Source of the DNA: Malacoraja senta
Taxonomy: Eukaryota
Assembly (NCBI GenBank): GCA_038087875.1
Contig: CM075995.1
Location: forward strand, 10,294,001 to 10,358,000
Direction: 5' to 3'
Length of the DNA: 64,000 bases
How positions within the stretch are numbered: the first letter of the stretch is position 1; each line of letters begins with the position of its first letter. Below the pieces are notes generated by a model. That model made no database searches and was not told the origin of the DNA. It was given only the letters and a program-made list of their open reading frames with translations. The position numbers and the translations under genes were made by a program. This document shows, in pieces, positions 1 through 63,481 of the stretch.

Positions 1-106
1 ATTGTCGGTCGATATGTGACCATTATCATCCCAGGGAATAATAAAATATTGACCCTGTGCGAGGTTGATATCATCGGTTCTGAACTCCCGTCGTTACTTG
101 GAACAG
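1..106 (+). CDS. F-type lectin exon B0 (C-terminal half of domain 0; 5' end outside the window)
   Basis: IVGRYVTIIIPGNNKILTLCEVDIIGSELPSLLGT; donor G|gtaggc at 106/107. Confidence 0.85.
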
Positions 107-843
107 GTAGGCTGAGCTTGCCGCTGAGCACTGCTTCGATACAACATCTCATCTTAGTTGAGCGTCTTCAGCTGATAAAGTTTGTCGATAATTATCTTCC
201 TGAAGCCCAGAACCATATTTCCCACCGCTCTACTCTTTGCCATTCTTAGATTAATCGCCAGTCTTGGGTCCTCGCATTGTGCAAACATAATCCAGTCTCT
301 GAATTAAATCCCCGAGACACTAGGTGCATACACAGCTACAACGTGTCAGGCGTAAGAATCACCAACATAACATCATTCATCCGGAGACGTTGTGCTGATC
401 AGCAGCAGGCACGTCCCAACCAATTATACGACTATTGAGACACGCTTGAATAGTACCTCCCTACTCTCAGACTATTGAACGGTTCTCCCTTGAGTTGTAG
501 TTCAATCCCGATCTTTTAGCTTGCCTCATTGCGGTTCTTGGGATTATTTGAAAAAACGTAAACCGTAACACTATAACATGATATTGTCACATAATGCATT
601 ATGTTATTACTTTTTCTACTTCACACGTGGCTCCTGTGTGCGGCTTCGTTGCACTGTTGTACAGTACGATTAGATTGGATGGTACAAGCAAGGGTGTTTA
701 CTGCATCTGGCTTCACTTGACCATACTAAAGCAATACGAATATCAATGAAATTCACTACTGCTCCATTGCTTGATACAAGGCCTCCATCCGTCGGAATTA
801 AATGTCTCCTTTGCGGCTCATTGAGGTGCTTCTCATCCAACAG

Positions 844-1123
844 GAAACGTGGCGTCCGGAGGACGGCCGACCCAGTCCAGCACGTATGCAGGGGCAGGTG
901 CTCATCGAGCCAATGACGGTAACAGCGACATCCACTTCAGGAATGGATCATGCTCGCGCACCAGGAAATCCACAAACCCTTGGTGGAGAATCGATCTATT
1001 AGAGATCTACAATGTGTCAGATGTAAAAATCACAAACAGAGCAGACTGCTGTTCAGACCGGCTTCAAGGAGCCCAGATCCATATCGGGAACTCACTGGAG
1101 AATGATGGCAATTCCAACCGACT
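844..1123 (+). CDS. F-type lectin exon A1
   Basis: cag|GAAACGTG...CGACT|gtaagt; 280 bp; NVASGGRPTQSST...GSCSRT...PWWRIDL...NRADCCSDRL. Confidence 0.9.
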
Positions 1124-1683
1124 GTAAGTATTCAGAAGCAAACGCCGACTCTATTCAGCTGCGGGATCGTGTTCTGCAAGTTCCACTGGCACTGTTGCAA
1201 TGGTAACATGAGTGGGAAACAGAGAAAAGCTGCAGGTTAAGACTTATCTCACTGCAGAAATAGCTAAAAACGATCACGGTTGTTCCAGATGCGAGAGAAA
1301 GTGATACAGAGCCGCAGACCAAGTCTGTAGCGGTGGGTTCAATAAAAGGAGACGAATATACATGTAATTTAAGTTAATTCAATAAAAATAATATTGAACA
1401 ATCGGAATGCATGTGCAATTTTCAGGTAACCAACGCCCATGTGTGAGGGAACATGGAGTTCCTTCCGAGACAAGGTGACCATTGTATCCGGACCCTTTCC
1501 TGTTCCTAGTTAATTGTTTGGGAGGTAACGGCAAGGATGCCCGGGATAGACGCGGGGGCTCAGCACATGCCATGAAAGTGTCACCACTTCACCCGCACAG
1601 GCCTTCGATAACGTTTGACACGAGATCCCGACCGCAGTGATCGAGATATTTCAGGCTCACCTTTAAATCTTCATCTATTTCAG

Positions 1684-1844
1684 CTGTGTAACTGTTGCTG
1701 CGGTTAATTTGACGACGTTTCTCTTTAAATGTGATGGATTTGTCGGTCGATATGTGAACATCATCATCCCCGGCCACAACAAAATCTTGACCCTGTGTGA
1801 GGTTGAGATCTTTGGTACAGAAGTCCCGTACTTCATTGGAAAAG
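1684..1844 (+). CDS. F-type lectin exon B1
   Basis: tttcag|CTGT...AAAG|gtaggc; 161 bp; CVTVAAVNLTTFLFKCDGFVGRYVNIIIPGHNKILTLCEVEIFG. Confidence 0.9.
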
Positions 1845-2516
1845 GTAGGCGGAACTTTCCGCTGAGGCTCTGGTTGTGCACAGCCCCCTAGCATAGTTGG
1901 GAAGATTCTCCCACTGATAAGGTATGCGAAATAAAGATCTTCATGAGGCCGTGTACCGTCATTCTGCCCTTCTCCACTTTTGGACTCTCGCATTGTCCAA
2001 ATATAATCCTATCTAAGAAAGAAATACTTGAGACACTTGATGCACGCGCCCTGAGTCATTCCGATCTGGACTTAATGCTGATAAACACCAACCACGCACC
2101 GACGAATTACCCGCCTATTGAAAAACACTTGAAGAGCATCTCTTTGCTCTCAGACAACCGAATCGTCCGTCCTTGTTCTATTGCAAACCCGATATTTTAA
2201 ACTGCCTCAGTGCGTTTCTTGGACATATTTCCTGTAACTGTAAAGCTACAACAATGTAATAGCATATCATGCAATCTATGTTTTTTTTCTACTTTACTTG
2301 TTGCTCTTGTGTACGGCTTCATTCCATAGATGTACAGTATGTTATGAGTGTATGGTACAAACAAGGGTTATCATTGCATCTTGCGTCACTTGACCATACA
2401 AGAGCATCACGATTATCAATGAAATACACTGCTCGTACAAATCTTGATAGAAGGCCTACATCTATCGGCATTAAATATCTCCCTTGCGGCTCATTGAGGT
2501 GTTTCCCACTCACCAG

Positions 2517-2796
2517 AAAACCTGGCGTTCGGTGCACGGCCAACCCAGTCCAGCACGTATCGAAGGGCAGTTGCAGAGCGAGCCAATGACGGTAACAGGG
2601 ACGGCGACTTCATGCATGGTTCATGCGCGCGCACCATGAAATCTAAGAACCCTTGGTGGAGAGTCGATCTAAAGGCAAGATACAACGTGTCAGATGTAAG
2701 AATCACCAACAGAGCAGACTGCTGCTGGAAGCGGCTCAAAGGAGCCGAGATCCGCATCGGGACTTCGCTGGCGAACGATGGCAATTCCAACAGACT
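2517..2796 (+). CDS. F-type lectin exon A2
   Basis: ccag|AAAACCTG...AGACT|gtaagt; NLAFGARPTQSSTYRRAVAERANDGN...GSCARTMK...NRADCCWKRL. Confidence 0.9.
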
Positions 2797-10596: not shown

Positions 10597-10757
10597 CTGT
10601 GCAACCGTCAACTTAGGTCACTTGACGACATTTATCGTTAATTGTGGTGGATTTGTTGGTCAATATGTGAACATCATCATCCCAGGGTACAATAAAAGGT
10701 TGACCCTATGCGAGGTTGAGATCTTTGGTTCAGAACTTCCGTCCTTACTTGGAACAG
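10597..10757 (+). CDS. F-type lectin exon B2
   Basis: tttcag|CTGTGCA...ACAG|gtaggc; CATVNLGHLTTFIVNCGGFVGQYVNIIIPGYNKRLTLCEVEIFG. Confidence 0.88.
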
Positions 10758-12172: not shown

Positions 12173-12452
12173 AAAACGTGGCGTTGGGAGTACCGGCAGC
12201 GCAGTCCAGCACCTATCGGTGGGCAGGTGCGGAGCGAGCCAATGACGGGAACAGCGACAGCGACTTCAGGCATGGTTCATGCGCTCGCACCAGGAAATCC
12301 ATGAACCCCTGGTGGAGAGTTGATCTAAAGAAAAGCTACAACGTGTCAGTTGTAAGCATCACTAACAGAGCAGATTGCTGCTCGGATTGGTTACAAGAAG
12401 CGGAGATCCGCATCGGGAACTCGCTGGAGAACGATGGCAATTTCAACAGACT
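12173..12452 (+). CDS. F-type lectin exon A3
   Basis: caacag|AAAACGTG...AGACT|gtaagt; NVALGVPAAQSSTYRWAGAERANDGN...NRADCCSDWL. Confidence 0.9.
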
Positions 12453-13153: not shown

Positions 13154-13314
13154 CTGTGGAACCGTGGATTCAGTTTCTGGGACAACATTGACATTAAATT
13201 GTGCTGGATTTGTCGGTCGATATGTGAACATTATCATCCCAGGCCAGGATAAAATTTTGACTCTGTGCGAGGTTGAGATCATTGGTAGAGAATTTCAGTC
13301 CTCACTTGGAAAAG
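13154..13314 (+). CDS. F-type lectin exon B3
   Basis: tttcag|CTGTGGA...AAAG|gtaggc; CGTVDSVSGTTLTLNCAGFVGRYVNIIIPGQDKILTLCEVEIIG. Confidence 0.9.
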
Positions 13315-16050: not shown

Positions 16051-16330
16051 AAAATCTGGCGTCCGGAGCACCGCCGACCCAGTCCAGCACGCATCGAAGG
16101 GCAGTTGCTGAAGGAGCCAACGACGGTAACAGTGACAGCAACTTCAGGCATGGCTCATGCGCGCGCACCCGTAAATCTAACAACCCTTGGTGGAGAGTGG
16201 ATCTAAAGGAAAGCTACAACGTGTCAGATGTAAGAATCACCAACAGAGCAGACTGCTGCAGGGACCGGCTCAAAGGAGCCGAGATCCGCATCGGGGACTC
16301 GCTGGAGAACGATGGCAACTCCAACAGACT
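16051..16330 (+). CDS. F-type lectin exon A4 (its frame is absent from the ORF track)
   Basis: caacag|AAAATCTG...AGACT|gtaagt; NLASGAPPTQSSTHRRAVAEGANDGN...GSCARTRK...NRADCCRDRL. Confidence 0.9.
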
Positions 16331-17043: not shown

Positions 17044-17204
17044 CTGTGAGACAGTAGATTCGGTTTCTGAGACGACATTGACCTTCAATTGTGATGGATT
17101 TATCGGTCGATATGTGAACATCATCATCCCAGGCCAGAATAAAACTTTGACCCTGTGCGAGGTTGAGGTCTTTGGTTCAAAACTCTCGGACTTACATGGA
17201 AAAG
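17044..17204 (+). CDS. F-type lectin exon B4
   Basis: tttcag|CTGTGAG...AAAG|gtaggt; CETVDSVSETTLTFNCDGFIGRYVNIIIPGQNKTLTLCEVEVFG. Confidence 0.9.
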
Positions 17205-18289: not shown

Positions 18290-18695
18290 TTGTTGAAATC
18301 GTGGAGAGGACAGGGGGGGGGGGGTACACGTCCTCCACATGCTTTGAGAGGTGGGGGACAATCGTCCCCCCCCCACCCCACCATGTTTTGTAATCCGGAC
18401 TTTATCAGACGCTTTCTAAGGGCTGAATCGGACCGTTTGCGGGGCCTTTCAGCGCCCGGTGCGGCTGAAAATCAAACTGCTGCATCGAGGCGATCGAGGC
18501 TCCCGATGTTCAAGCCCCCGCCGGCCGATGAAAGGCCCCGCAAATGGGCCGATTCAAGCCCCAGGATTCGGGGCGGACGAAGTTGCTGTTGCTGGAGTTC
18601 GGAGTTGGTCGCCAACCAGCTCAGCGTCCGATGATACCGTCCACAGGGCCCACAGCCGACGCCTCTCGTTTGTGCACATCCGTGCACATGTGTGA
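18290..18695. mobile_element. Partial inverted copy of the 11123-11853 MITE family
   Basis: Reverse-complement similarity, e.g. GGGGCGGACGAAGTTGCTGTTGCTGGAGTTCG versus CGAACTCCAGCAACAGCAGCTTCGTCCGCCCC. Confidence 0.65.
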
Positions 18696-19160
18696 ATTCT
18701 CCTGAACAACTCTCCTGAAGCTCCGGTACCCCGTAGCATTGAACTGCCAGTTCTGCCACTCTCTTAACAGGATTTCAATGATGGCTATAACATCCCAGTC
18801 GCTCGTAACTGTCCATGCACTGAGCTCGTCTGCCTTACCCGTCAGGCCTCTTGCATTAAAATACGTGCAGTTCAACGAATGCTCCTTCCTCGCTCTCCGC
18901 CTTTCACCTGCCTATTCCGTCCACTAACTTTTCCCTCATCATCGTCCAAACCAACCTCCCACGTGCATCAGTCCTGTATCCCAACCACTCTCAATCTAGT
19001 TTAAACCCTCCCGTGTAGCATCAGCAAACCTGCCCGTCAAGATGTTGGTACCCCTCCAGTTAAGGTGCAACCCGTCTCTTTTGTACAGGACACCCCGTCC
19101 CAGAAGAGATCCCAATAATCCAGAAACCTAAATCCCTGTCCCCTGCACCAACTCCCCTAT
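18696..19160 (-). mobile_element. Old CR1 fragment (ORF1 end and endonuclease start), repeated in all five units
   Basis: LNCTYFNARGLTGKADELSAW...WDVIAIIE resembles the start of a CR1 APE domain. Confidence 0.7.
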
Positions 19161-19223
19161 CTTCCTGTCCCTCGGCATTAAATATATCCCTTACGGCTCA
19201 GTGAGGTGTTTTCCACTCAATAG

Positions 19224-19503
19224 AAAACGTGGCACACGGAGCACCGCCGACCCAGTCCAGCACGGATCACGGGGCACCTGCTGAGCTAGCGAATGACGGG
19301 AACAACGACAGCGACTTCAGGCATGGTTCATGCTCGCGCACTAGGAAATCCAAGGATCCTTGGTGGAGAATCGATCTAAATGAAAGCTACAACGTGTCAA
19401 ATGTAAGAATCACCAACAGAGCAGACTGCTGCTCGGACCAGCTCAAAGGAGCGGAGATCCGCATCGGGAATTCGCTGGAAAACGATGGCAATTCCAACAG
19501 ACT
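19224..19503 (+). CDS. F-type lectin exon A5 (unit 1)
   Basis: caatag|AAAACGTG...AGACT|gtaagt; NVAHGAPPTQSSTDHGAPAELANDGN...NRADCCSDQL. Confidence 0.9.
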
Positions 19504-19892
19504 GTAAGTGTTCTTAAGCAATCGTCGACTCAAGTCACAAGCGTTGTCTTTTTTTGCAACATTCGGTGTTACTGAAGCAATGATAATATCAGTGGGAAAA
19601 AGAGAGTTGCTGCAGGATAACAATGATCTCACTGCAGATAAAATTAAAAATTATTCTCCGCTGATCCAGATGCGAGAGAAAATCATACAGAGCCGTAGTC
19701 AACTTATCCAATGACATCAGCTGCTGACGTACCTCTATAGCGGTGTGGTCAATGAAAGGACAAGTATAAATCTGTAATTTAAGTTGATTCAAGTTATGTA
19801 ATAATGAACAATCTGATTGCTGTGGCAATAGACAGGTAACCAATGCCGATGAGTGAGGATCATGCAGCATCTACTCAGTCAATGTGGCCTAT

Positions 19893-20100
19893 GTGTGGGA
19901 AGGAACTGCAGGTCGTGGTTTAACCCGAAGATATACACAAAAATATGGAATAACGTGTGCGGTCAGACCGCATCATTGGAGAAAAGCAATAGGTGACGTT
20001 CCAGGTCGAAACCCTTCCCCAGACTGAATACAGTCTGAAGAAGGGTCTCGATCCGAAACGTCACATATTCCTTTTCTCCAGAGATGCTCTCTGACGCGCA
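19893..20100. repeat. Palindromic Penelope-like repeat with a hammerhead-like motif; copies at ~25157, ~30421, ~35676, ~40957 and ~49237, fragments at ~51500, ~54975, ~60030 and ~63870
   Basis: Inverted arms centred on CAGACTG-aata-CAGTCTG; the right arm contains CTGAAGA-AGGGTCTCGATCC-GAAACGTC. Confidence 0.55.
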
Positions 20101-20289
20101 TGGTCACCTATATATCCTGTTGCTAGCCATATGTTCGTAACTGGAGCAAGTGGGCGGATGCCGGAAGTAGCCGTGGGATCCCCCCATATCCATGGAACGT
20201 GTCATCAGTTCACCAGCACAGACCTACGATCACCTTTGTTACGTTTAGTCATCCGCATGATCGAGGCAGTGGAGGCAGTAGAGTCTAAA

Positions 20290-21150
20290 GTTTAAATCCA
20301 ATGTTCTATAGACTTTGGATCAGTTCCTGTGGACTGGAGTGCAGCTAATGTAACCCCACTTTTAAGAAGGAGGGAGAGAGAAAACATGGAATTACAGACC
20401 AGTTAGCCTGAAATCGGTAGTGTAGAAGATGTTTCAGTCGATTATTGTAGATGTAATAGCAGCGCATTCGGAAAGCAGTGACAGGATCGGTGAAAGTCAG
20501 CATGGCTCTATAAAGGGGAAATCATGCTTGACTAATATGCTGGCATTTTTTGAGGATGTAACAAGAGTGGGCAAGGGAGAGACAGTGAATGTGGTATATC
20601 TGGATTTTAAAAAAAGCCTATGCCAAGGTCCCACACAAGAGATTAGCGTGCAAAATTCGAGCGCATGGTATTGCGAGTAGGGTATTGTTATGGCTAGAAA
20701 ACTGGTTGGCTGACAACACGCCAAGAGTAGGGATTTACGGGTCATTTTCTGAATGACAGGCGGTGATGCATGGGGTTCCGCAAGGTTCAGTGCTGAGACC
20801 CATGTTATTTACAATATATATTGACAACTTAGACGAAGGAATTAAATGGTACATCTCGAAGTGTGCGGATGACAAAAAGCTGGGTGGCAGTGTGCGCTGC
20901 CAGTAAGATGCTATGAGGATGCACGGTGACTTAGATAGGTTCAGTTAGTCGGCAGATGCATGACAGATGCAGTATAATATGGATAAATGTGAGGTTATCC
21001 ACGTTGGTGGCAAAATAACAAGAATGCAGATTATTATCGGAATGGTGTCAGAATCGGAAAAGGGTGGTGCAGAGAGACCTCTGTTTCCTTCTACATCAGT
21101 TTCTAAAAGTAAGCACATGGGTACAGCAGCCAGCGAAGAAAGCAAATGTC
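20290..21150 (+). mobile_element. Degraded CR1 RT fragment, repeated in all five units
   Basis: Frameshifted [25 protein letters not shown] and MQYNMDKCEV motifs. Confidence 0.8.
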
Positions 21151-21301
21151 AGTGTGGAAGATGCCGGAGTAGCCATGGGAGCCCCCCCTCCACATCCCAT
21201 GCACCTGTCATCAGTACACCACCACAGGCCTACGATAACAAACGCTTTCTCGTCTATTGTGATCGAGGTAGCGGAGGCTAACTTTCAAACATCTCTTTCA
21301 G

Positions 21302-21735
21302 CTGTGGAACCGTTGATTCAGTTGCTTTGACAACACTTACATTCAATTGTGATGGACTTGTTGGTCGATATGTGAACATCTTCATCCCGGGCCAGGATAA
21401 AATCTTGACTCTTTGCGAGGTTGAGATCTTTGCTTCAAAATATCCTTCTACCCATATCCCGTTAGAGCAGGACATGAAACCCACGTCTGGACCTGAAATG
21501 GAAAAGCAAACTCACGTCCATATCCCGTCCGTAAAGGGAACGAAACTCCCGCCAACCTCTGGAAACAATCTCCCGCACATAACTGGAACGAAAATGCCGT
21601 CCGTGAAGGAAACGGTGCCCCAGTCCCCAAAGGGAACGAAAAAACCGTCCATACCTGGAACGAATATCCCGCCAACAACCGGAACGAACGTTTCGTTCGT
21701 AACTGGAACAAATCTGCGATCTGGAACTGTAACAG
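21302..21735 (+). CDS. Extended exon B5: lectin C-terminal half plus Pro/Thr-rich linker
   Basis: tttcag|CTGTGGA...ACAG|gtaggc; 434 bp, i.e. 161 bp plus 273 bp in frame. Confidence 0.88.
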
Positions 21736-21871
21736 GTAGGCTCAGCGCCCCGATAAGTCTGTGGTCGTAGACACTGAGGCATTCTCAGCCACGAAATCGA
21801 TTACTGATACTATTTCTGGAAGGAGGGAATCATGTTAGCCCGAGATTCACTACCCTCTGGCTAAAACAAAT

Positions 21872-24487: not shown

Positions 24488-24767
24488 AAAACGTGGCACA
24501 CGGAGCACCGCCGACCCAGTCCAGCACGGATCACGGGGCACCTGCTGAGCTAGCGAATGACGGGAACAACGACAGCGACTTCAGGCATGGTTCATGCTCG
24601 CGCACTAGGAAATCCAAGGATCCTTGGTGGAGAATCGATCTAAATGAAAGCTACAACGTGTCAAATGTAAGAATCACCAACAGAGCAGACTGCTGCTCGG
24701 ACCAGCTCAAAGGAGCGGAGATCCGCATCGGGAATTCGCTGGAAAACGATGGCAATTCCAACAGACT
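24488..24767 (+). CDS. F-type lectin exon A6 (unit 2)
   Basis: Same protein as A5; AG/GT intact. Confidence 0.88.
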
Positions 24768-40285: not shown

Positions 40286-40565
40286 AAAACGTGGCACACG
40301 GAGCACCGTCGACCCAGTCCAGCACGGATCACGGGGCACCTGCTGAGCTAGCTAATGACGGGAACAACGACAGCGACTTCAGGCATGGTTCATGCGCGCG
40401 CACTAGGAAATCCAAGGATCCTTGGTGGAGAATCGATCTAAATGAAAGCTACAACGTGTCAAATGTAAGAATCACCAACAGAGCAGACTGCTGCTCGGAC
40501 CAGCTCAAAGGAGCGGAGATCCGCATCGGGAATTCGCTGGAAAACGATGGCAATTCCAACAGACT
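40286..40565 (+). CDS. F-type lectin exon A9 (unit 5)
   Basis: 280 bp; GAPSTQSST and GSCART variant. Confidence 0.88.
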
Positions 40566-41509
40566 GTAAGTGTTCTTAAGCAATCGTCGACTCAAGTCAC
40601 AAGCGTTGTCTTTTTTTGCAACATTCGGTGTTACTGAAGCAATGATAATATCAGTGGGGAAAAAGAGAGTTGCTGCAGGATAACAATGATCTCACTGCAG
40701 ATAAAATTAAAAATTATTCTCCGCTGATCCAGATGCGAGAGAAAATCATACAGAGCCGTAGTCAACTTATCCAATGACATCAGCTGCTGACGTACCTCTA
40801 TAGCGGTGTGGTCAATGAAAGGACAAGTATAAATCTGTAATTTAAGTTGATTCAAGTTATGTAATAATGAACAATCTGATTGCTGTGGCAATAGACAGGT
40901 AACCAATGCCGATGAGTGAGGATCATGCAGCATCTACTCAGTCAATGTGGCCTATGTGTGGGAAGGAACTGCAGGTCGTGGTTTAACCCGAAGATATACA
41001 CAAAAATATGGAATACCTTGTGCGGTCAGGCCACATCATTGGAGAAAAGCAATAGGTGACGTTCCAGGTCGAAACCCTTCCCCAGACTGAATACAGTCTG
41101 AAGAAGGGTCTCGATCCGAAACGTCACTTATTCCTTTTCTTCAGAGATGCTCTCTGACGCGCATGGTCACCTATATATCCTGTTGCTAGCCATCTGTTCG
41201 TAACTGGAGCAAGTGCGCGGATGCCGGAAGTAGCCGTGGGATCCCCCCATATCCATGGAACGTGTCATCAGTTCACCAGCACAGACCTACGATTACCTTT
41301 GTTACGTTTAGTCATCCGCATCATCGAGGCAGTGGAGGCAGTAGAGTCTAAAGTTTAAATCCAATGTTCCATAGACTTTGGATCAGTTCCTGTGGACTGG
41401 AGTGCAGCTAATGTAACCCCACTTTTAAGAAGGAGGGAGAGAGAAAACAGAGAATTACAGATCAGTTAGCCTGAAATCGGTAGTGTAGAAGATGTTTCAG
41501 TCGATTATT

Positions 41510-41873
41510 AGATACATAGATACATGGAAAATAGGTGCAGGAATAGGCCATTCGGCCGTTCGAGCCTGCACCGCCATTCAATATGATCATGGCTGGTCAT
41601 CCAACTCAGTATCCCGTACCTGCCTTCTCTGCATACCCCCTGATCCCTTTAGCCACAAGGGCCACATCTAACTCCCTCTTAAATATAGCCAATGAACTGG
41701 CCTCAACTACCCTCTGTGGCAGAGAGTTCCAGAGATTCACCACTCTCTGTGTGAAAAAGTCTTTCCTCATCTCGGTCTTAAAGGATTTCCCCCTTATCCT
41801 TAAGCTGTGACCCCTTGTCCTGGACTTCCCCAACATCGGGAACAATCTTCCTGCATCTAGCCTGTCCAATCCA
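41510..41873 (-). mobile_element. Short CR1 3' fragment found only in unit 5
   Basis: ORF 41606-41869 is a CR1 C-terminus; ATTATT duplicated on both sides; units 1-4 show the empty site. Confidence 0.85.
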
Positions 41874-42736
41874 ATTATTGAAGATGTAATAGCAGCGCAT
41901 TCGGAAAGCAGTGACAGGATCGGTCAAAGTCAGCATGGCTCTATAAAGGGGAAATCATGCTTGACTAATCTGCTGGAATTTTTTGAGGATGTAACAAGAG
42001 TGGGTAAGGGAGAGACAGTGAATGTGGTATATCTGGATTAAAAGAAAAGCCTATGCCAAGGTCCCACACAAGAGATTAGCGTGCAAAATTCGAGCACATG
42101 GTATTGCGAGTAGGGTATTGTTATGGCTAGAAAACTGGTTGGCTGACAACACGCCAAGAGTAGGGATTTACGGGTCATTTTCGGAATGACAGGCGGTGAT
42201 GCATGGGGTTCCGCAAGGTTCAGTGCTGAGACCCATGTTATTTACAATATATATTGACGACTTAGACGAAGGAATTAAATGTTACATCTCGCAGTATGCG
42301 GATGACAAAAAGCTGGATGGCAGTGTGCGCTGCCAGTAAGATGCTATGAGGATGCACGGTGACTTAGATAGGTTCAGTTAGTGGGCAGATGCATGACAGA
42401 TGCAGTATAATATGGATAAATGTGAGGTTATCCACGTTGGTGGCAAAAAACCAAGAATGCAGATTATTATCGGAATGGTGTCAGAATAGGAAAAGGGTGG
42501 TGCAGAGAGACCTCTGTTTCCTTGTACATCAGTTTCTAAAAGTAAGCACATGGGTACAGCAGCCATCGAAGAAAGCAAATGTGAGTGCGGAAGATGCCGA
42601 GTAGCCATGGGAGCCCCCCCACCTCCACATCCCATGCACCTGTCATCAGTACACCACCACAGGCCTACGATAACAAACGCTTTCTCGTCTCTTGTGATCG
42701 AGGTAGCGGAGGCTAACTTTCAAACATCTCTTTCAG

Positions 42737-43170
42737 CTGTGGAACCGTTGATTCAGTTGCTTTGACAACACTTACATTCAATTGTGATGGACTTGTTGGT
42801 CGATATGTGAACATCTTCATCCCGGGCCAGGATAAAATATTGACCCTTTGCGAGGTTGAGATCTTTGCTTCAAAATTTCCTTCTATCCATATCCCGTTAG
42901 AGCAGGACATGAAACCCACGTCCGGACCTGAAATGGAAAAGCAAACTCACGTCCATATCCCGTCCGTAAACGGAACGAAACTCCCGCCAACCTCTGGAAA
43001 AAATCTCCCGCACATAACTGGAACGAAAATGCCGTCCGTGAAGGAAACGGTGCCCCAGTCCCCAAAGGGAACGAAAAAACCGTCCATACCTGGAACGAAT
43101 ATCCCGCCAACAACCGGAACGAACGTTTCGTTCGTAACTGGAACAAATCTGCGATCTGGAACTTTAACAG
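42737..43170 (+). CDS. Extended exon B9 (unit 5)
   Basis: 434 bp; KFPSIH variant; donor ACAG|gtaggc at 43170. Confidence 0.88.
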
Positions 43171-43306
43171 GTAGGCTCAACGCCCCGATAAGTCTGTGGT
43201 CGTAGACACTGAGGCATTCTCAGCCACGAAATCGATTACTGATACTATATCTGGAAGGAGGGAATCATGTTAGCCCGAGATTCACTACCCTCTGGCTAAA
43301 ACAAAT

Positions 43307-46300
43307 CCATGTAACCATAAAACCATATAACAATTACAGCATGGAAACAGGCCATCTCGGCCCTTCAAGCCCATGCCGAACACCTTTTTCTCCCCTAGTG
43401 CCATCTACCTGCACAGACCATAACCCTCCATTCCTTTCTCGTCCATATACCCATCCAATCTATTTCGAAATGATAAAATCGAACCTGCCTCCACCACTTC
43501 CACTGGAAGCTCATTCCACACAGCTACCACTCTCTGAGTAAAGAAGTTGCCCCTAATGTTACCGCTAAACTTCTGTCCCTTAATTCTCAAGTCATGTCCT
43601 CTTGCTTGAATCTTCCCTACTCTCAATGGGAAAAGCTTATCCACGTCAACTCCTTCAATCGCTCTCATCATTTTAAAGACCACGATCAAGTCCCCCCTTA
43701 ACCTTCTGCGCTCCAAAGAATAAAGACCTAACTTGTTCAGCCTTTCTCTGTAATTTAGTTGCTGAAACCCAGGCAACATTCTCGTAAATCTCCTCTGTAC
43801 TCTCTCTATATAGTTGACATCCTTCCTATAATTAGGCGACCAAAATTGTACTCCATACTCCAGAATTGGCCTCACCAATGCCTTGTACAATTTTAACATT
43901 ACATCCCAACTTCTATACGCAATGCTCTGATTTATCAAGGCCAGCACACCAAAAGCATTATTTACCACCCTATCTACATGAGATTCCACCTTCAGGGAAC
44001 TATGCACAGTTATTCCTAGATCCCTCTGTTCAACTGCATTCCTCAATTCGCTACCATTTACAATGTACGTCCTATTTTGATTTGTCCTGCCAAGATATAG
44101 CACCTCTCATTTATTATCCACAACACCACCTATCTTAGTATCATCTGCATACTTCCTAATCCAATTTTCCACACCATCATCCAGATCATTGATGTACATG
44201 ACAAACAACAGTGGACCCAACACAGACCCCTGAGGCACCCCACTAGTCACCGACCTCCAACCTGACAAACAGCCATCCACCATTACTCTCTGGCATCTCC
44301 CATTCAGCCACTGTTGAATCCATCTTGCTACTCCACCATTAATACACCACAATTGAATCTTCTTAACCAACCTTCCATGACGAACCTTGTCAAAGGCCTT
44401 AATGAAGTGCATATAGACAACATCCACTGCTTTACCCTCATCAATTTCCCCAGTAACCTCTTCGAAAAATTCAAGAAGATTAGTCAAACATGACCTTCCA
44501 GGCACAAATCTATGTTGACTGTTCTTAATCATACCCTGTTTATCCAGATGCTTATATATATTATCACTAAGTATCCTTTCCATTAATTTGCCCACCACTG
44601 ACGTCAAACTAACAGTTCTATAATTGCTAGGTTTACTCTTAGAACCCTTTTTAAACAACGGAACAACATGCGCAGTACGCCAATCCTCCAGCACTATTCC
44701 CGTTTCTAATGACATTTGAAATATTTCTGTCGTAGCCCCTGCTATTTCTACACTAACTTCCCTCAATGTCCTAGGGAATATCCTGTCAGGACCTGGAGAC
44801 TTAGCCGCTTTCATATTTTTCAAAAGTATCCACACTTCCTCTACTTTAAATCTCATAGTTTCCATTGCTACTCTGCTCGTTTCCCTTACCTCCACATAAT
44901 TCAATAACCTTCTCCTTGGTGAATACCGAAGAAAAGAAATTGTTCAATATCTCCCCCATCACTTTTGGCTCTGCAGATAGCTGTCCACCCTGACTCTCTA
45001 ATGGACCAATTTTATTCCTTGTTATCCTCTTGCTATTAATATAGCTGTAGAAACCCTTTGGGTTTAATTTCACCTTACTTGCCAAAGCAACCTCATATCT
45101 TCTTTTAGCTTTTCTAATTTCTTTCTTAAGATTCTTTTTACATTCTTTATACCCCTGCAGCACCTCATTTACTCCATGCCGCCTATATTATTGTATATCT
45201 CTCTCTTTTCCGAACCGTGTCCAATTTCCCTTGAAAACCATGGCTCTTTCCCAATTTTTACTATTTCCTTTCACCGAACAGGGACATAAAGATTCTGTAC
45301 TCTTAAAATTTCACATTTAAACGTTCTCCATTTCTCTTCTACATCCTTCATAAAACAACATGTCCCAATTCACTCCTTTTAAATCCTTTCGCATTTCCTC
45401 AAAGTTAGCCTTTCTCCAAAAACTCAACCTTAGGTCCAGTTCTGACCCTCTCCATAATTATATTGAAACTAATGGTATTGTGATCACTGGACCCAAAGTG
45501 ACACCTAACGCATACCTCCGCACCTGCCCTGTCTCATTTCCTAACAGGAGGTCCAGCACTGCCCCATCTCTTGTAGGTACCTCTATGTATTGTTGCAAAA
45601 ACTATCCTGCACATATTTTACAAACTCCAAACCCATCCAGCCCTTTTACAGAATGTGTTTCCCAGTCTATGTGTGGAAAATTGAAATCTCCCACAATCAC
45701 TACCTTGTGCTTACTACTAATATCTGCTATCTCCTTACATATTTGCTCTTCCATTTCTCGCTCTCCATTAGGCGGTCTATATTACAAAGCTATAAGTGTT
45801 GCTACCCTTTCCCATTTCTCAGTTCCACCCAAATATCCTCCCGAAGATGAGCCCTCTAATCTATCCTGCCAAAGCACTGCTGCAATATCTTCCTGACAAG
45901 CAATGCAACACCCCCACCTCTTGACCCTCCAACTCTATCACACCTAAAGCAACGAAATCTGGAATATTTAGTTTCCACTCACAGCCCTCCTGCAACCATG
46001 TTTCACTTATCGCCACAACATCATACTTCCAGGTGTCAATGCAGGCTTTAAGCTCATCCACGTTTCCTACAATGCTCCTAGCATTTAAACTATACACATT
46101 TAGAAACACACCACCACTTATTCTCTGTTTATTTTCTTTTTCTTCTTTCTCCCCTACATTTTGCGTCCGAGTGCTTCCTTCTCTGCCTCATGCCTCACAC
46201 CCTGACTACTAGCTTTCCCTATTCGAGTCCCTCCCACCAACCGTTCTAGTTTAAAGTCTCCCCAGTTGCCTTTGCACATCTCCCCGCCAGGATATTGTCC

Positions 46301-48591: not shown

Positions 48592-48871
48592 AAAACGTGG
48601 CGTTGGGAGCAAGTGCGTCCCAATCCAGCACGGATGGAGGGGCAGCTTGTGAGCGAGCCAATGACGGAAACACCGACAGCGACTTCAGGCATGGTTCATG
48701 CGCGCGCACCAGGAAATCCAAGGACCCTTGGTGGAGAGTCGATCTAATGGAAAGCTACAACGTGTCAGATGTAAGAATCACCAACAGAGCAGACTGCTGT
48801 TCGGAACAGCTCCAAGGAGCTGAGATCCGCATCGGGGACTCGCTGGAAAACGATGGCAATTCCAACACACT
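48592..48871 (+). CDS. F-type lectin exon A10
   Basis: cacag|AAAACGTG...ACACT|gtaagt; NVALGASASQSSTDGGAACERANDGN...NRADCCSEQL. Confidence 0.9.
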
Positions 48872-49490
48872 GTAAGTTCTCATAAGCAATCGCCGACTCA
48901 AGTAACAAGCGTTGTCTTTTTCTGCAACCTTCGCTGTTACTGGAGCAATGATAATATCAGTGGGAAAAAGAGAGATGCTTCAGGATAAAATTAAAATTAT
49001 TCTCCGCTGATCCAGATGCGGGAGCAAATGATACAGAGCGTAATCAACTTACCAAATTACATGAGCCTTTTGCGTACCTCTATAGCGGTGGGGTCAAAGA
49101 AAGGACAAGTATAAATCTGTAATTTAACTTAATTCAAGTTATGTAATAAGGAACAATCGGATTGCTGTGGCAATAGACAGGTAACCAATGACGATGAGTG
49201 AGGATATTGCAGCATCTACTCAGTCAATGCGGCCTATGTGTGGGAAGAAACTGCAGGTCGTGGTTGAACGCGAAGATACGCACAAAAATATGGAATACAT
49301 TGTGCGGTCAGACCGCATCATTGAAGGAAAGCAATAGGTGACGTTCCGGGTCGAATCCCTTCCTCAGACTGAATACAGTCTGAAGAATGTCTCGATCCGA
49401 AACGTCAGCTATTCCTTGTCTCCAGAGAACAGCGACAGCGTCCTCAGGCATAGTTCATGCGCGCGCACCAGTAAATCTAAGAACCCTTGG

Positions 49491-50435
49491 CTGGATAATG
49501 AAGTAGATTTTCAAAGTCTGCAGAGAGATTTAGGCCATTTGGAAGAGTGGGCTGAAAGATGGCAGATGGAGTTTAATGCTGACAAATGTGAGGTGCTACA
49601 TCTCGGCAGCACAAATCAAAATAGGACGTACCCGGTAAATGGTAGCGAATTGAGGAATGCAGTTGAACAGAGGGATCTAGGAATAACTGTGCATAGTTCC
49701 CTGAAGGTGGAATCTCATGTAGATAGGGTGGTAAAGAAAGCTTTTGGTGTGCTGGCCTTTATAAATCAGAGCATTGAATATAGAAGTTGGGATGTAATGT
49801 TAAAATTGTACAAGGCATTGGTGAGGCCAATTCTGGAGTATGGAGTACAATTTTGGTCGCCTAATTATAGGAAGGATGTCAACAAAATAGAGAGAGTACA
49901 GAGGAGATTTACTAGAATGTTGCCTGGGTTTCAGCAACTAAGTTACAGAGAAAGGTTGAACAAGTTAGGTCTTTATTCTTTGGAGCGCAGAAGGTTAAGA
50001 GGGGACTTGATAGAGGTCTTTAAAATTATGAGCGAGTTCAACAGAGTGGACGTGTATAAGCTTTTCCCATTGGGAGTAGGGAAGATTCAAGCAAGGGGAC
50101 ATGACTTGAGAATTAAGGGACAGAAATTTAGGGGGAACATTAGGGGGGACTTCTTTAATCAGAGAGTGGTAGCTGTGTGGAATGAGCTTTCAGTGGAAGT
50201 GGTGGAGGCAGGTTCGATGTTATCCTTTAAAAATATATTGGATGGGTATATGGACGGGAAAGGAATGGAGGGTTATGGTCTAAGTGCAGGTAGATGGGAC
50301 TAGGGGGAACTATTTATTTTTAATTAAAAAAAATATATATATTTTTAAAATTTAAAAAAAATGTTCGGCACGGACTTGAAGGGCCGAGATGGCCTGTTTC
50401 CGTGCTGTTATGGTTATATAGTTATATGGTTATAT
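49491..50435 (+). mobile_element. 5'-truncated CR1 inside the pseudo-exon
   Basis: DNEVDFQSLQRDL...GYGLSAGRWD; (TTATATGG)n-like tail at ~50408-50435. Confidence 0.9.
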
Positions 50436-50540
50436 GAGGGTGGATCTAAAGGAAAGCAACAACATGTCAGATGTAAGAATCACCAACAGAGCAGACTACT
50501 GCGCTGCCCACCTCAGAGGTGCCGAGACTCGTTGGAGAAC

Positions 50541-51128
50541 CATATAACCATATAACCATATACCAATTACAGCACGGAAACAAGCCATCTCGTCCCTTCT
50601 AGTCCGTGTCAAACACGTATTATCCCCTAGTCCCATATACCTGCGCTCAGACCATAACCCTCCATTCCTTTCCCGTCCATATAACTATCCAATTTATTTT
50701 TAAATGATAAAAACGAACCTGCCTCCACCACCTTCACTGGAAGCTCATTCCACACAGCCACCACTCTCTGAGTAAAGAAGTTCCCCCTCATGTTACCCCT
50801 AAACTTCTGCCCCTTAATTCTCAAGTCATGTCCCCTTGTTTGAATCTTCCCTACTCTCAGTCGGAAAAGCTTATCCACGTCAACTCTGTCTATCCCTCTG
50901 ATCATTTTAAAGACCTCTATTAAGTCCCCCCTTAACCTTCTGCGCTCCAAAGAATAAAGCCCTAACTTGTTCAACCTTTCTCTGTAACTTAGTTGCTGAA
51001 ACCCAGGCAACATTCTAGTAAATCTCCTCTGTACTCTCTCTATTTTATTGACATCCTTCCTATAATTAGGCGACCAAAATTGTACACCATACTCCAGAAT
51101 TGGCCTCACCAATGCCTTGTACAATTTT
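50541..51128 (-). mobile_element. 5'-truncated CR1 inside the pseudo-exon, opposite orientation
   Basis: ORF 50627-51184 is a CR1 C-terminus; (CCATATAA)n tail on + strand. Confidence 0.9.
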
Positions 51129-54100
51129 TGTACGATGGTAACTCCAACAGACTGTGAGTATTCAGAAGCGATCGCCGACTCCATTCACATGCGATGTCGT
51201 CCTCTACAAATTTCAATATTACTGTTGCAATGATAAAATGATCAAATTGCATAAAAAAAACTGTGCTGCGCTCAACCAGATGCTAGGAAAAATGATACAA
51301 AGCCGTTGTCCAATTGGCCAGTGTCATGAGCTGCTGACGTACTTCCATCGCGATGTGTTCAATAAAAGCAGATGCATAAATAAGACATTTAAGTTAATTC
51401 AAGTTATGAAATGATGAACAAACGGATTGCAGTAGTAATGTTCAGCTAACCAATGCCTATGAGTGATGATCATGCAGGCTCAAGCTACTCAGGGCTACCT
51501 GGGTGTCGGAACGAAATGCAGGTGCATGTTTAATCCGAAGATAGACATACAAACTGGAGTAACTCAGCGGGTCGGACAGTAACTCTGGAGAAAAGGAATA
51601 GCAAACGTTTCATAGATATACAGATACTTAAACAATAGGTGCAGGAGTAGGCCATTCGGCCTTTCGAGCCAGCACCGCCATTCATGTGATCATGGCTGAT
51701 CATCCACAATCACTACCCCGCTCCTGCCTTCTCCCGATACCCCTTGAATCCGCTGGCCCTTGGCGCTCTATCTAACACTCTTTTAAATGCATCCAGTGAA
51801 TCGGCCTCCACTGCCTCCCGAGACAGAGAATTTCACAAATTCACAACTCTCTGGGTGAAAAAGTGTTTCATCATCTCAGTACTGAATAGCCTACCCCTTA
51901 TACTTAAACCGTGGCCCCTGGTTCTGGACTTCCACAACACCGGGAACGTGTTTCCCGCATCTAGCTTGACCAATCCCTCAATAATTTTATATGTCCCTAT
52001 AAGTTCCTCTCTCATCCTTCTGAATTCCAGTGAATATAAGCCCAGTCGCTCAATTCTTTCAGCATCTCGTCATCCCGTGAATTAACCTCGTAAACCTACT
52101 CTGCACTCCCTCAATAGCAATAATGTTCTTCCTCAAATTAGGAGACCAAAACTGCACATAATGCTCCAAATGTTGTCTCACCAGGGCCCTGTACAACCGC
52201 AGAAGGCCCGCTTTGCTCCTGTACTCAACTCCTCTCGTTATGAAGGCAAATATGCAATGAGCTTTCTACACTGCTTGTTGTACCTGCGTGCTTACTTTCA
52301 GTGACTGGTGTACAAGGACACCCAGGTCACGTTGTACTCCTCTTTTCCTAACATGACACCATTCAGATAATAATCTCCTTCCCGTTCTTCCCACACATAT
52401 ATCCACATTATACTGCATCTGCCACGCATCTGTCCACTCACCCAACCTGTCCAAATCACGCTACATCCGCATAGCATCCTCTTCACAGTTCACACTGCCA
52501 CCCAGCTTTGTGTCATCTGCAAATTTGCTAATGTTACATAATTCCTTTATCTTAATCATTAATGTATATTGTAAATAGCTGCGGTCCAAGCACCGAGCCT
52601 TGCTGCACCCCACTAGTCACAGCCTGCCATTCAGAAAGGGGCCCGTTAATTCGTACACTTTGTTTCATGTCTACCAACCAATTTTCTATCCATGTTAATA
52701 ACATACCCCCAATATCATGTGCTCTAATTTTACCCACTAATATTCTGTGTGAGACCTTAGCAAAGGCTTTTTGAAAATCCAGGTACACTACATCCACTGG
52801 CTCTCCCTTGTCCATTTTACTTGTTACATCCTCAAAAAATTCCAGAAGATTTGTCAAGCATGATTTCCCCTTCGTAATTCCATGCTGACTTGAACCGATC
52901 CAGTTACTGCTATCTAAATGCGCCGCTTTATTACATCTTTGATAATCGACTCCAGCACCTTACCCACAACTGATGTCAATCTGACTGGTCTAAAATTGCC
53001 TGCGTTCTCTCTCCCTCATTTCTACAAAAGTGGAATAACCCTACAATCCAAAGGAACCGATCCAGAATCTATAGAACATTGGAAAATGATCACCAATGCT
53101 TCCACGGTTTCGAGAGCCATTTCCGTGAGTACCCTGGGATGCAGACCATCAGGCCCCGGGATTTATCAGCTTTCTGACCCATCAGTCTACCCAACACCAT
53201 TTCCTGACTAGTTAGAATTTTCTTCAATTCCTCCATCACTTTAGCCATTTGTCCCCTAGTACACCCGGGAGATAGTTTGTGTCTTCCTTCGTGAGGACAG
53301 AACCAAGCTACCTGTTCAACTCGTTTGCCATTTCCTTGTTCCTTGTTCACCTGTTCTGTCCTCAAGGGACCCACATTTGTCTTAATAATAAATAATAATA
53401 ATAAATAATAAATACTTAACTAATTTTAACTAATTAACTCTTAACTAATGTTCTCCTCTTCATATACTTAAAGAAGCTTATACTATCCTCTTTTATATTC
53501 TTGGCTAGCTTTCCTTGTTACTTCATCTTTTCTCCCCGTATTGCCTTTTTAGTTACCTTCTGTTGTTCTTGAAACGTTGCCCAATCTCCTGGCTTCCCGC
53601 TCTCTTTGCTATGTTATACGTCTTCTCTTTTATTTTTATACTGTCCTTGACTTCCGTTGTCGCCTCTTACTCTATTGAACACGTGATTCAATTGCTCAAC
53701 TTTAGGCAGAAGCAGGAAAGTTGTTCGGTAGCAGTATTCACGCCTGAGCAGCCCTATTTAGGATCCACTCTGCTCACCCTGAACTGGGAAGGCGCTAGAA
53801 AAGAAATAGTCTGCTTCGACTCCTCCTGTCTGGAAAGCCGCATCCAGAGGGATCACCATCATGCGGTCGAAAATCATCAAGAAGTGAAACTATGAAACTC
53901 GGAACTTGGAATATACGAACTCTGATGGACAACCCAAACTCAGACCGACCCGACAGAAGAACCGCCTTTGTTGTTCGGGAACTCCGAAAATTCAGCTTTG
54001 ACATCGTTGCTCTGAGTGAGAACCGCAGAGCTGGAGAAGGGCAACTAAAGGAAGATCAAGGTCAATACACCTTTTTCTGGAAAGGTCTTGATCTTGGACA

Positions 54101-60310: not shown

Positions 60311-62366
60311 GTCTATGGTTGAAGGTTTAAACGATGGGTTATTAACTATTGGTATTGAGAGAGATAGGTTTCTTAATTTTAGATTCTGTTTTATTTGTTT
60401 CCATGTTCTAATTGTGCTATTTATAATTGGGTTTTTATTATAATTTTTATTATTCAAATTTATTGGAGAGAGAATAATCGCTCCTATATTACTCGGGGAA
60501 CAGTCCCCTTTTTCCATTATAATCCAGTCCGCCTGCTGGGCAGAATTGTCCAGCAGGTGAATCATATTTTTAATATTTACTGCCCAATTATAATACATAA
60601 AGTTAGGGAGCGCGAGACCCCCCAACTCTTTTCGTTTATTAAGGTGTGCTCTTTGTATTCTATGGGATTTATAATCCCATATAAAATTTGTAATGTCTGA
60701 GTCCAATTTTTTGAAAAACTTTTTGGGGAGATATATGGGTATTGATTGAAATAGGTATAGGATTTGTGGTAAGAAAATCATTTTTATAGCATTTATTCTG
60801 CCTATTAAGGACATCGGAAGCGTTTTCCAGAATTTAATCATATTATTTAATTTCTTAAGTAAGGGATTATAATTGGCTTTAAACATATCCTGGTAATTTC
60901 AAGTAATTTCAATTCCCAAATATTTGAATTTTTCTGTAGCTATTTTAAAGGGGAATTTCCTGAGGTGTGTTGAGTCTTTTGGTTTTATCGACATAATTTC
61001 ACTTTTGTTCCAGTTTATTCTATATCCTGAGAAGGATCCAAAGTCCTCAATTAAATTTAATATATTTGGTATATTAATTTGTGGTTTTGTGATGTACAAT
61101 AGTACATCATCCTTCAACCATAGACAAATCATTTATACAATGGGAAATAATGGGAATCAAAACGCTCGAAGATCTGTATGAATTGGGAAAATTACTATCA
61201 TTTCAACAACTACAACTGAAATATAATTTGAAAAATAATCAATATTTTAAATATCTACAAATTCGTGATTACCTGAAAAAATACACAAAAGACTATCATA
61301 ATATGCCTTCCGACTTACTAGATGATGCAATGAAGACAAAGGCGGAATCAGCTAATCTAATATCGTACTTATATAATATCATTTTACACATAGAAATACC
61401 CACAACAGATGGAATTAGAAGAGACTGGGAACAAGAATTAGCTATAAAAATTTCAAAAGAGAGCTGGGATAACCATTTACTACAGGTGCATAAATGTTCG
61501 ATCAACATACGACATACGCTCATCCAATTCAAAACATTACATAGACTATATTATTCAAAAACTAAATTAAATAAAATCTTTCCTAATGTTTCACCAATCT
61601 GTGATAAATGTCTATGTCAAGAAGCTACCATAGCGCATTCTTTTGTTTTTTGTACAAAAATCCAAAAATTCTGGTATGAAATATTTGATATTTTCTCAAA
61701 ATTAATTAAAATAAAACTGGTACCAAAACCAGAATGGATCATTTTTGGAATATCGGAAGGTATCCCTGAATTAAACGTGTATCAGAAGAACTTATTCAAT
61801 TACGGGCTAATAATTGGAAAAAAGCTCATACTTAAATTCTGGAAAAATGCGCCCACACCAACAATAAAAATGTGGACATCAAATATGATGGAAACATTAC
61901 ATCTGGAAGAGATGAGATTCCTCTTAGCAGGTAAAGCGGAACAATTCCAAAAGACGTGGTCTACGTTTCTGGACCTATTACAAGCATGAGGTGCAATAGT
62001 AATTTAAAAAATAAATAGATAAAGAAATGGTATCAGGACCTGGTAATGGGAGGTAAAGCAATAAAAACAGACTTGGTTGGTGGTTCCCTTTCAGCGATTG
62101 TTCCTACTCTCTTTTTCTTTCTTTTCTAGGATCTACTTTCTTACTTTACTTCCTTCTCTAACTTCTTTTCTAAGGGGCTTTCTTTTCACAACACTCTCTT
62201 GCACTTCACGACTCTTGCGCACTTTCTTTACTTTTCTTACTTCTATCTTTCTCTTAAAGCTCAAAAAAATGAAGCGGTATAAAAAATGTATTAAGATATA
62301 AGTGTTGTGCATTACTGTAATTTACCGTACTTCTAATAAAAATAATTAAAAAAATAAAAATAAAAA
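60311..62366 (+). mobile_element. L1-clade LINE with 5' inversion, inserted just upstream of exon B10
   Basis: Inverted ORF2 piece 60311-61110 (- strand; DDVLLY, YRINWNKS, WKTLPMSLIGRINAIK); sense ORF 61150-61989; A-rich tail; TSD AAATCCTCATCTTT at 60297-60310 and ~62368-62381. Confidence 0.9.
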
Positions 62367-62386
62367 AAAATCCTCATCTTTTTCAG

Positions 62387-62547
62387 TTGTGGAATCGTTG
62401 ATTCGGTTTTCGGGACGACATTGACCTTCAATTGCGGTGGATTTGTCGGTCGATATGTGAACATCATTATCCCAGGCCCGGATAAAACATTAACCCTGTG
62501 CGAAGTTGAAATATTTGGTTCAGAACTCCCGTACTTACATGGAAAAG
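62387..62547 (+). CDS. F-type lectin exon B10
   Basis: tttcag|TTGTGGA...AAAG|gtaggc; CGIVDSVFGTTLTFNCGGFVGRYVNIIIPGPDKTLTLCEVEIFG. Confidence 0.88.
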
Positions 62548-63201
62548 GTAGGCTGAGCTTCCCGCCGAGCCTCTGGTTGTACACTGCCGCACAGCTTAGT
62601 TGAAAGTTTCTCGCACTGATGATGTCTGAGGATACCTTCCTTATTGAAGCGCAGTACCGTCTCTCCCAACCCTCTGCTCTTTGGCTTTCGTAGTTTACTC
62701 GTCAGATTTGGACCCTCGCTGTGTCCGAAAATGAAATTCCTGAGTCACTCGATGTATACGCCGTCATCCATTTCGTCTGCAGACCTTATGCTGATAAACA
62801 CCATCCTGGCATCAAAAAATCACACACCGATTGAAGCACGCGTGGAGAGTATCTCCCCGTTACATGACTACAGAACGGCCCTCCCTTGAGTTGTAGTGCA
62901 ATCTCGATATTTTAACCTGCCTCAGCGCGGTTCTCAGACTAAAGTTCTCCAGCCCTATTACCACAACACCATACACCATATTATGCAATCTATTGCTTTA
63001 TTTCTACTTTACCAGTTGCTCTTGTGTGCGGCTCATTGCACTGATGTACAGAACGTACAGTACAAAGAAGTGTTTGCACTGCATCTCGCTTCCCTTGGCC
63101 ACACAAAAGCAAGACGAATATGAATGAAATATACTGATAACCCAACCCCTGATAGAAGAAATACCTCCATCGGTATCAGTAAAGTGTTTCCCACCTAACA
63201 G

Positions 63202-63481
63202 AAAACGTGGCGTTGGGAGCAAGTCCGACCCAGTCCAGCACGGATGAAGGGGCAGGTGCTGAGCGAGCCAATGATGGGAACATCGACAGCGACTTCAGGC
63301 ATGGTTCATGCGCACGCACCAGGAAATCCAAGGACCCCTGGTGGAGAGTAGATCTAAAGGAAAGCTACAACGTGTCAGATGTAAGAATCACCAACAGAGC
63401 AGACTGCTGCTCGGACCAGCTCCAAGGAGCAGAGATCCGCATCGGGGACTCGCTGGAGTACGATGGCAATTCCAACAGACT
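63202..63481 (+). CDS. F-type lectin exon A11 (partner B exon lies beyond the window)
   Basis: taacag|AAAACGTG...AGAC T|gtaagt; NVALGASPTQSSTDEGAGAERANDGN...NRADCCSDQL. Confidence 0.9.

Follow-up and report, generated by a model that had tools for sequence, protein, structure and literature searches.

A tandem array of F-type lectin domains with altered fucose pockets in the skate Malacoraja senta, probably part of one very long gene

A stretch of 64,000 nucleotides (nt) from Malacoraja senta (assembly GCA_038087875.1, contig CM075995.1, positions 10,294,001–10,358,000 of the forward strand) carries a tandem array of exons that encode F-type lectin domains. The whole stretch is termed the window. 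The locus raises two questions: do the exons belong to one very long gene or to several short ones, and do the encoded domains still bind fucose? The window is repeat-rich vertebrate DNA with a GC content of approximately 45%, and it carries remnants of reverse transcriptase and integrase. The reading favored here, with a little more than even confidence, is that the window represents the middle of one very long secreted F-type lectin gene in which all eleven pockets in view have Arg at position 52 and the ligand is altered and probably anionic.

The array is made up of strictly alternating A and B exons, 11 of each and all plus-strand, as determined by tblastn with the first exons and by a listing of splice sites (Table 1). 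The A exons are 280 bp each, with entry in phase 1 and exit in phase 2. Five B exons are 161 bp, five are 434 bp, and one is truncated by the window start (positions 1–106). All 21 internal introns have GTAAGT or GTAGG(C/T) at the 5' end and AG at the 3' end. The spliced frame of the 22 exons is 6,161 nt and encodes 2,053 amino acids (aa) with no stop codon. This agrees with the initial annotation, which had predicted that open exons of fixed lengths and compatible phases would join into approximately 2,050 aa; exon borders were located at both of the splices it had cited, 1844 to 2517 and 17204 to 19224. Each domain is a two-exon cassette with phase-1 introns on either side. The array begins within exon B0 and finishes in the intron 3' of A11, and as had been claimed it exceeds the window at both ends. 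There are 10 complete A+B domains and two halves. The earlier count of at least 12 domains is upheld in this sense, but these are not 12 independent domains, as five are genomic copies with 98.0–99.6% identity.

The assignment to the F-type lectins, also made in the initial annotation, is borne out by a Pfam profile match, a sequence match to solved structures and a fold match. The three A exons tested all clear the cut-offs of both Pfam F5_F8_type_C and F5_F8_type_C_2. The best matches of A1 to solved structures are bass FBP32 (3cqo, E 1e-47) and eel agglutinin (1k12, E 2e-23). The fold evidence comes from an AlphaFold model of Leucoraja P0033, the orthologue of A3-B4, which is 85–92% identical to these exons and stands in for a window domain. 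The model shows two confident F-type domains, with a predicted local distance difference test score (pLDDT) ≥90 for 232 of 452 residues; the mutual placement of the two domains is not confident (predicted template modelling score 0.52). A Foldseek search with this model placed 3cqo and 1k12 within the top three matches, with a root mean square deviation of 1.3 Å over 144 columns for 1k12. When the window domains are mapped on eel agglutinin, all six cysteines are retained. The calcium ligands Asp38, Asn40, Ser49, Cys146 and Glu147 and the structural disulphides are present in all 11 A exons and all 10 whole B exons. The cation motif h2DGx, which calls for two small hydrophobic residues, is absent; the sequence is A-N-D-G-N in 11 of 11, with Asn at the second hydrophobic position. 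The 2,053 aa in view contain 65 cysteines and 30 N-glycosylation sequons, no transmembrane stretch (the highest 19-residue hydropathy is 1.34) and no pentraxin or other second domain type. The source protein is predicted to be secreted because of these cysteines and sequons, the absence of a transmembrane stretch in view, and the leader peptides present in complete relatives.

The sugar pocket is changed in each of the eleven domains whose pocket is contained in the window. With residues numbered on eel agglutinin, the fucose motif HX24RXDX4(R/K) (His52, Arg79, Arg86) is found in none of the 11 domains. Position 52 is Arg instead of His in all of them, and position 86 is Gln in seven, Arg in three and Trp in one. 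Ile37 is replaced by Asn throughout, and Tyr46 of the methyl pocket is replaced by Arg in nine domains. Arg79, Asp81, Cys82-Cys83 and Phe45 are retained in 11 of 11. The loop around residue 52 has a net charge of +3.0, compared with -0.9 in 419 other vertebrate domains. Every copy has CGC as codon 52, and the CpG of this codon is intact in all seven old lineages; only 2 of 22 CpG sites are intact in all seven. Codon 86 varies between CGG, CAG and TGG and shows the products of CpG decay. Because the fucolectin motif fails while the fold is kept, the array is read from its sequence as encoding a protein of F-type domains whose pocket has been remodelled and made more basic. Fucose binding in the usual mode is likely lost, and we infer that the ligand may be an anionic glycan. 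The term multivalent lectin, applied earlier to this array, does not imply fucose binding, with the His-Arg-Arg triad in 0 of 11.

An unlikely alternative is that the gene is long as proposed but its domains have kept fucose binding through Arg52, which would make the contact otherwise provided by His52 or by the lost Arg86. The residues retained in all domains favor this, as does the fixation of Arg52 while codon 86 varies, which would be expected if one Arg replaced another, and three domains do hold three Arg. However, the available parts of two reviews (PMC5712786; PMC12221842) treat changes in the triad as altered or lost binding, and the methyl pocket itself is changed by the Arg at position 46.

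The altered pocket is a pattern that, by residue comparison, is concentrated in skates. The residue tally covers 512 profile-aligned domains from 131 proteins (120 listed of 191 matches, plus 11 long chains), and these domains are related and do not represent independent events. Among them, Arg52 is present in 32/43 skate domains, 2/21 other chondrichthyan domains and 14/448 other domains. The intact triad shows the reverse distribution, with 1/43, 11/21 and 241/418, respectively, after 30 gapped rows were dropped. The nearest database proteins, among the matches listed, are from skates, with up to 91% identity to A11. A domain tree of 65 domains and 92 columns, which includes 8 of the 11 window domains and 4 of the 11 sawshark domains and has many unresolved forks, places every window domain included in a single clade of 43 rows that is made up of skate and window domains (support 93/87). 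A1, A2 and A3 each pair with Amblyraja domains in this tree (starred support). The scarcity of the intact triad, none in the window and one in the other skate domains tallied, would also fit a long gene that has lost sugar binding altogether and serves as a disulphide-stabilised structural scaffold or protein binder, and the 30 sequons and the Pro/Thr linkers of the array are in keeping with such a role. This is considered decidedly unlikely; selection appears still to act on the surface, to judge from the basic loop and the invariance of Arg52 and Arg79.

With respect to the number of genes, a single continuous long transcript, mixtures with shorter isoforms included, is highly probable from the arrangement of the exons. 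The B donor GTAGG is invariant in 7/7 lineages, and of the next 24 intron positions four are invariant. This donor is in phase 1, and the next phase-1 acceptor downstream belongs to an A exon. Two of the B-to-A introns are just 654 and 672 bp and are rich in indels. When the 10 B-to-A introns were all scanned for a leader exon, defined by an ATG, a hydrophobic stretch and a donor in phase 1, one match was obtained, which lies in a duplicated intron fragment, and leader peptides from sawshark, conger, tarpon and frog have no meaningful tblastn match in the window. The absence of a conserved leader exon in these 10 introns fits the earlier observation that no signal-peptide exon lies between modules. 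A T-rich intronic block was considered as a hidden leader exon. It is signal-peptide-like in some copies, but its phases and stops vary between copies and it is absent from the recent copies; it was rejected. The idea that the block is an old tail of a long interspersed nuclear element (LINE) gained no support from a comparison with one such element in the window.

The order of the exons is kept in Amblyraja. Model P0034 corresponds to B0-A1 and model P0003 to B1-A2-B2-A3-B3-A4-B4; these nine exons are split exactly at the A1-B1 intron. Five Amblyraja models from one contig (P0034, P0003 and three flanking models) have monotonic accession numbers in the order predicted from the exons, where accession numbering presumably tracks genomic position. 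A candidate 5' end of the skate gene is P0432 of Rhinoraja longicauda. This model of 118 aa comprises a leader peptide and a single A exon, and it shares its contig with the array models.

The skate RefSeq models depict instead a cluster of short genes or transcripts of 1–4 domains each, ended by read-through of a B exon. The 14 skate models of the first search have 1–9 domains, a read-through stop follows each B exon, and poly(A)-like hexamers are present in 8 of the 10 B-to-A introns. None of the 14 models, however, opens with an evident leader peptide (analyst's reading), and exon edges coincide with the start or stop of most of them. Old modules do not share hexamer positions, and two introns have no hexamer; the B donors are invariant and there is no conserved leader exon. 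Short genes are rated as very improbable, and the fragmentation in RefSeq fits weak read support as well as it fits separate units. A single gene is probably divided among many models in the current skate annotations.

The open exons exceed chance expectation and are under purifying selection. The pooled ratio of nonsynonymous to synonymous substitution rates (dN/dS) is 0.43 for 21 pairs among 7 old A exons and 0.33 for 15 pairs among 6 old B cores, where the pairs are not independent. In the five recent copies the proportion of nonsynonymous differences (pN) is 0.0086 and that of synonymous differences (pS) is 0.0221. Frame-shifting gaps number 0 in 5,877 aligned columns of the A exons, compared with 13–22 per kb in the flanking introns, and the five recent copies have 17 gap events in introns and none in exons. 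A rough neutral simulation with intron-like divergence left 0.02–3% of 441-nt modules with an open frame and splice sites (20,000 runs for each of three parameter sets, chosen by the analyst and drawn from the gap and divergence comparison of the window). That the array was once functional and is now silent or decaying is a most improbable alternative. One A exon has decayed and the introns hold 45,407 bp of foreign sequence, as decay would have it, but 22/22 exons are open, the recent copies have pN < pS with no exonic indels, and none of 13 distinct foreign insertions disrupts an open exon (hand count).

Several observations nevertheless weigh against one long secreted gene with an altered ligand. 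Neither gene end is inside the window, and secretion is inferred from relatives. RefSeq breaks the array into 1–9-domain models in all three annotated skates, and several of these models contain intron-like inserts. Each B exon, if read through, meets a stop within 11–26 codons, and shorter products are possible. The B-to-A splice is backed by no transcript or peptide. The uninterrupted giant gene of the initial annotation is upheld as a continuous frame, and one long gene is the best reading. A skate B-to-A junction peptide was sought with P0025 and none that was skate-like was found in the best 120 of 624 near-length matches and 63 short matches, in what is a weak search; two assembly-derived rows among the 120 listed are 44–45% identical, and the 63 short matches are ≤59% identical. 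Insertions adjoin the acceptors of A10 and B10 and could weaken both. The B-exon alignments contain six compensated gaps of lengths other than multiples of three in 1,601 columns, which are read as alignment noise because the exon lengths are equal. The dN/dS values of 0.3–0.4 represent only moderate constraint. Arg52 is present in 16 non-skate domains as well, and Arg is basic like the His that it replaces, so fucose binding may survive. Taken together, the array is real, under selection and one gene, probably, and its ligand is probably altered, as judged from residues and exon structure.

Five of the domains are contained in head-to-tail genomic copies of approximately 5.26 kb. Variants are shared in a mosaic pattern among the five copies, as expected from unequal exchange or conversion. 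Their B exons carry a 273-nt in-frame expansion, counted as exon, which encodes a linker of 91 residues; the 98-residue tail of the 434-bp exon is 42% Pro/Thr/Ser and has short internal repeats. Homologues of the linker are present in Amblyraja P0003 and Leucoraja P0086, and because of these related linkers the linker is considered old and the fivefold copying likely recent. Copies 1 and 2 (18614–29141) differ at 19 of 5,264 sites, 14 of which are within the first 500 columns; they could represent a very recent duplication, or one could be a false or haplotype duplicate of the assembly. The remaining pairs of copies have 67–106 site differences. An assembly artefact was rejected for these pairs, as their differences are mosaic with pN < pS, unlike sequencing error.

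The 13 distinct foreign insertions, as counted after merging of copies, comprise two in the decayed A exon, and the rest are intronic. The decayed exon is without its 5' part, its acceptor and a preceding B exon, and two LINE-like insertions split what remains. It is predicted to be skipped, whereby A10 would join B10 in frame with one cassette lost. A degenerate long terminal repeat retrotransposon is present in the A2-B2 intron (2891–10396), with terminal repeats at 2891–3107 and 10179–10396 that are 87% identical; inside it are a minus-strand integrase remnant and two LINE-like insertions. The A10-B10 intron has a long degenerate LINE at 54000–58900 with reverse-transcriptase remnants and other LINE fragments nested inside. 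At 60309–62367 lies an L1-like insertion whose 5' part is inverted and which shows a target duplication of 14 nt. It stops about 20 nt short of the B10 acceptor, and its tail may now supply the branch point of B10. A short foreign element (48383–48540) is located about 50 nt 5' of the A10 acceptor. Debris of the module itself is also found in introns: a 30-nt A-exon piece at 337–366, a duplicated intron end that carries the opening codons of an A exon at 15383–15660, and a second duplicated intron block at 17800–18050.

Table 1. Exons and related features of the F-type lectin array, in window coordinates.
Feature	Position	Strand	Residues at 52/79/86 or other remark	Match or source
Exon B0, second half of domain 0	1..106	+	cut by window start	91% identity to Amblyraja P0034
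Exon A1 (280 bp)	844..1123	+	R52/R79/R86	93% identity to P0034
Exon B1 (161 bp)	1684..1844	+		94% identity to P0003
Exon A2	2517..2796	+	R/R/R	86% identity to P0003
Exon B2 (161 bp)	10597..10757	+		splice-site listing
Exon A3	12173..12452	+	R/R/W	93% identity to P0003, 92% to P0033
Exon B3 (161 bp)	13154..13314	+		splice-site listing
Exon A4	16051..16330	+	R/R/R	splice-site listing
Exon B4 (161 bp)	17044..17204	+		splice-site listing
Exon A5	19224..19503	+	R/R/Q	splice-site listing, Pfam
Exon B5 (434 bp)	21302..21735	+	domain half and 91-residue Pro/Thr/Ser-rich linker	
Exon A6	24488..24767	+	R/R/Q	
Exon B6 (434 bp)	26566..26999	+		
Exon A7	29752..30031	+	R/R/Q	
Exon B7 (434 bp)	31824..32257	+		
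Exon A8	35007..35286	+	R/R/Q	
Exon B8 (434 bp)	37086..37519	+		
Exon A9	40286..40565	+	R/R/Q	
Exon B9 (434 bp)	42737..43170	+		
Exon A10	48592..48871	+	R/R/Q; short foreign element just 5' of acceptor	
Decayed A exon	49418..51153 (about)	+	predicted skipped	
Exon B10 (161 bp)	62387..62547	+	L1-like insertion ends about 20 nt 5' of acceptor	
Exon A11	63202..63481	+	R/R/Q; partner B exon outside window	
Five head-to-tail copies of approximately 5.26 kb	18614..45322	+	starts at 18614, 23878, 29142, 34397 and 39676	98.0–99.6% identical

A possible history of the array can be proposed. Since each domain is a two-exon cassette with phase-1 introns, unequal crossing-over would add or delete whole cassettes with the frame kept; the cassettes are observed and the crossing-over is the proposed step. 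Old duplications would have produced the modules that are 70–85% alike and whose order is common to other skates, and a recent burst would have produced the five copies with the Pro/Thr linker. A deletion would have removed one B exon and left the decayed A exon to be skipped. The retained disulphide cysteines and calcium ligands predict domains that fold in a beads-on-a-string arrangement. They would be spaced mostly by short linkers and by five 91-residue spacers that are probably O-glycosylated. In an extracellular secretion, such a chain would likely serve to cross-link polyanionic glycoconjugates with high avidity. The available part of one report describes an F-type domain protein in catshark skin mucus (PMC10707392). 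Of the mucosal, innate-immune or egg-coat roles tentatively proposed in the initial annotation, the mucosal one is plausible by analogy with this protein, which says nothing of the skate gene itself.

How unusual is a chain of this length? According to the available parts of the two reviews cited above, most teleost chains have two or four F-type domains, with up to five in zebrafish and Xenopus (PMC5712786; PMC12221842). A profile made from the window A exons was searched against 1.84 billion representative proteins. This revealed predicted chains of 13–14 domains in X. tropicalis, 13 in conger, 11 in sawshark and 7–10 in several teleosts and a turtle. The array was initially described as unusually long; it does exceed the 1–5 domains of the reviews, but it is matched by the 11–14-domain models in sawshark, conger and X. 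tropicalis. The top match of the profile search, a 37-repeat snail model (P0121), is composed of A halves alone, which suggests a faulty model, and was not counted. The literature search found no account of this locus or of vertebrate chains of more than five domains, although the survey of Bishnoi et al., known via the reviews, may list longer ones. Five long-chain locus names, including X. tropicalis LOC100491211, were not found in the papers searched, and the part of PMC3269628 that was available adds nothing on long chains.

Comparison with known relatives shows what is shared and what is different. Bass MsaFBP32/MsFTL1 (PDB 3cqo) and eel AAA (PDB 1k12) share sequence, fold, calcium ligands and all cysteines with the window domains, and the two-domain bass lectin gene likewise has two exons per domain surrounded by phase-1 introns, as given in the available part of PMC12221842. 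MsaFBP32 has two domains and AAA has one, in contrast to at least 12 in the window, and the window differs from both in Arg52 and Asn37 in all domains, Gln or Trp in place of Arg86 in 8 of 11, and the Pro/Thr linkers. Oyster bindin and the Xenopus pentraxin fusion protein also have tandem F-type domains, but at most five; the basic triad is replaced in bindin isoforms, according to the available part of PMC5712786. Long chains of F-type domains only are represented by sawshark P0002 (11 domains, 63% identity to A11), X. tropicalis LOC100491211 (13–14), conger LOC133111337 (13) and loach P0290 (10), all of which are predictions; the complete sawshark, frog and conger models carry a leader peptide. 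Unlike the window, these long-chain relatives keep His-Arg-Arg in most domains (10/11 in sawshark, 11/13 in conger), and the sawshark domains form a separate clade, which represents an independent expansion. The models P0122, P0274 and P0278 (X. tropicalis LOC100491211), P0266 (conger) and P0002 have mostly canonical pockets and occur in several isoform lengths. The skate RefSeq models (Amblyraja LOC116984049/036/017/983989 and fucolectin-like; Rhinoraja LOC144607509/515; Leucoraja LOC129706200/218 and four fucolectin-like) are orthologous to the window array, with 76–94% identity per exon where orthology is clear, the B0–B4 order and Arg52. They differ in being annotated as separate partial genes, and none shows five near-identical copies with the long linker.

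The fold, the cassette structure and the duplication route are already known, and the array is not a new kind of system. The array-wide change of the pocket is more distinctive than the length. Adding the 8 A exons upstream in the Amblyraja models, the 11 in the window and at least one downstream gives at least 20 domains, if the flanking models join the chain. A tentative and rather doubtful extension is that skates have one unrecognised gene of at least 20 F-type domains (about 3,400 aa). Its pockets would have exchanged fucose for a sulphated or other anionic glycan within the skate lineage, and whole cassettes would still be gained and lost, such that a product of variable length would cross-link a gel or coat specific to skates. 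If true, this chain would exceed in length every vertebrate chain that the database searches found. The long chains in other vertebrates suggest that chains of 11–14 or more F-type domains, undescribed in the papers searched, arose repeatedly. The concerted His-to-Arg change across the array would represent a natural test of ligand switching in a lectin pocket.

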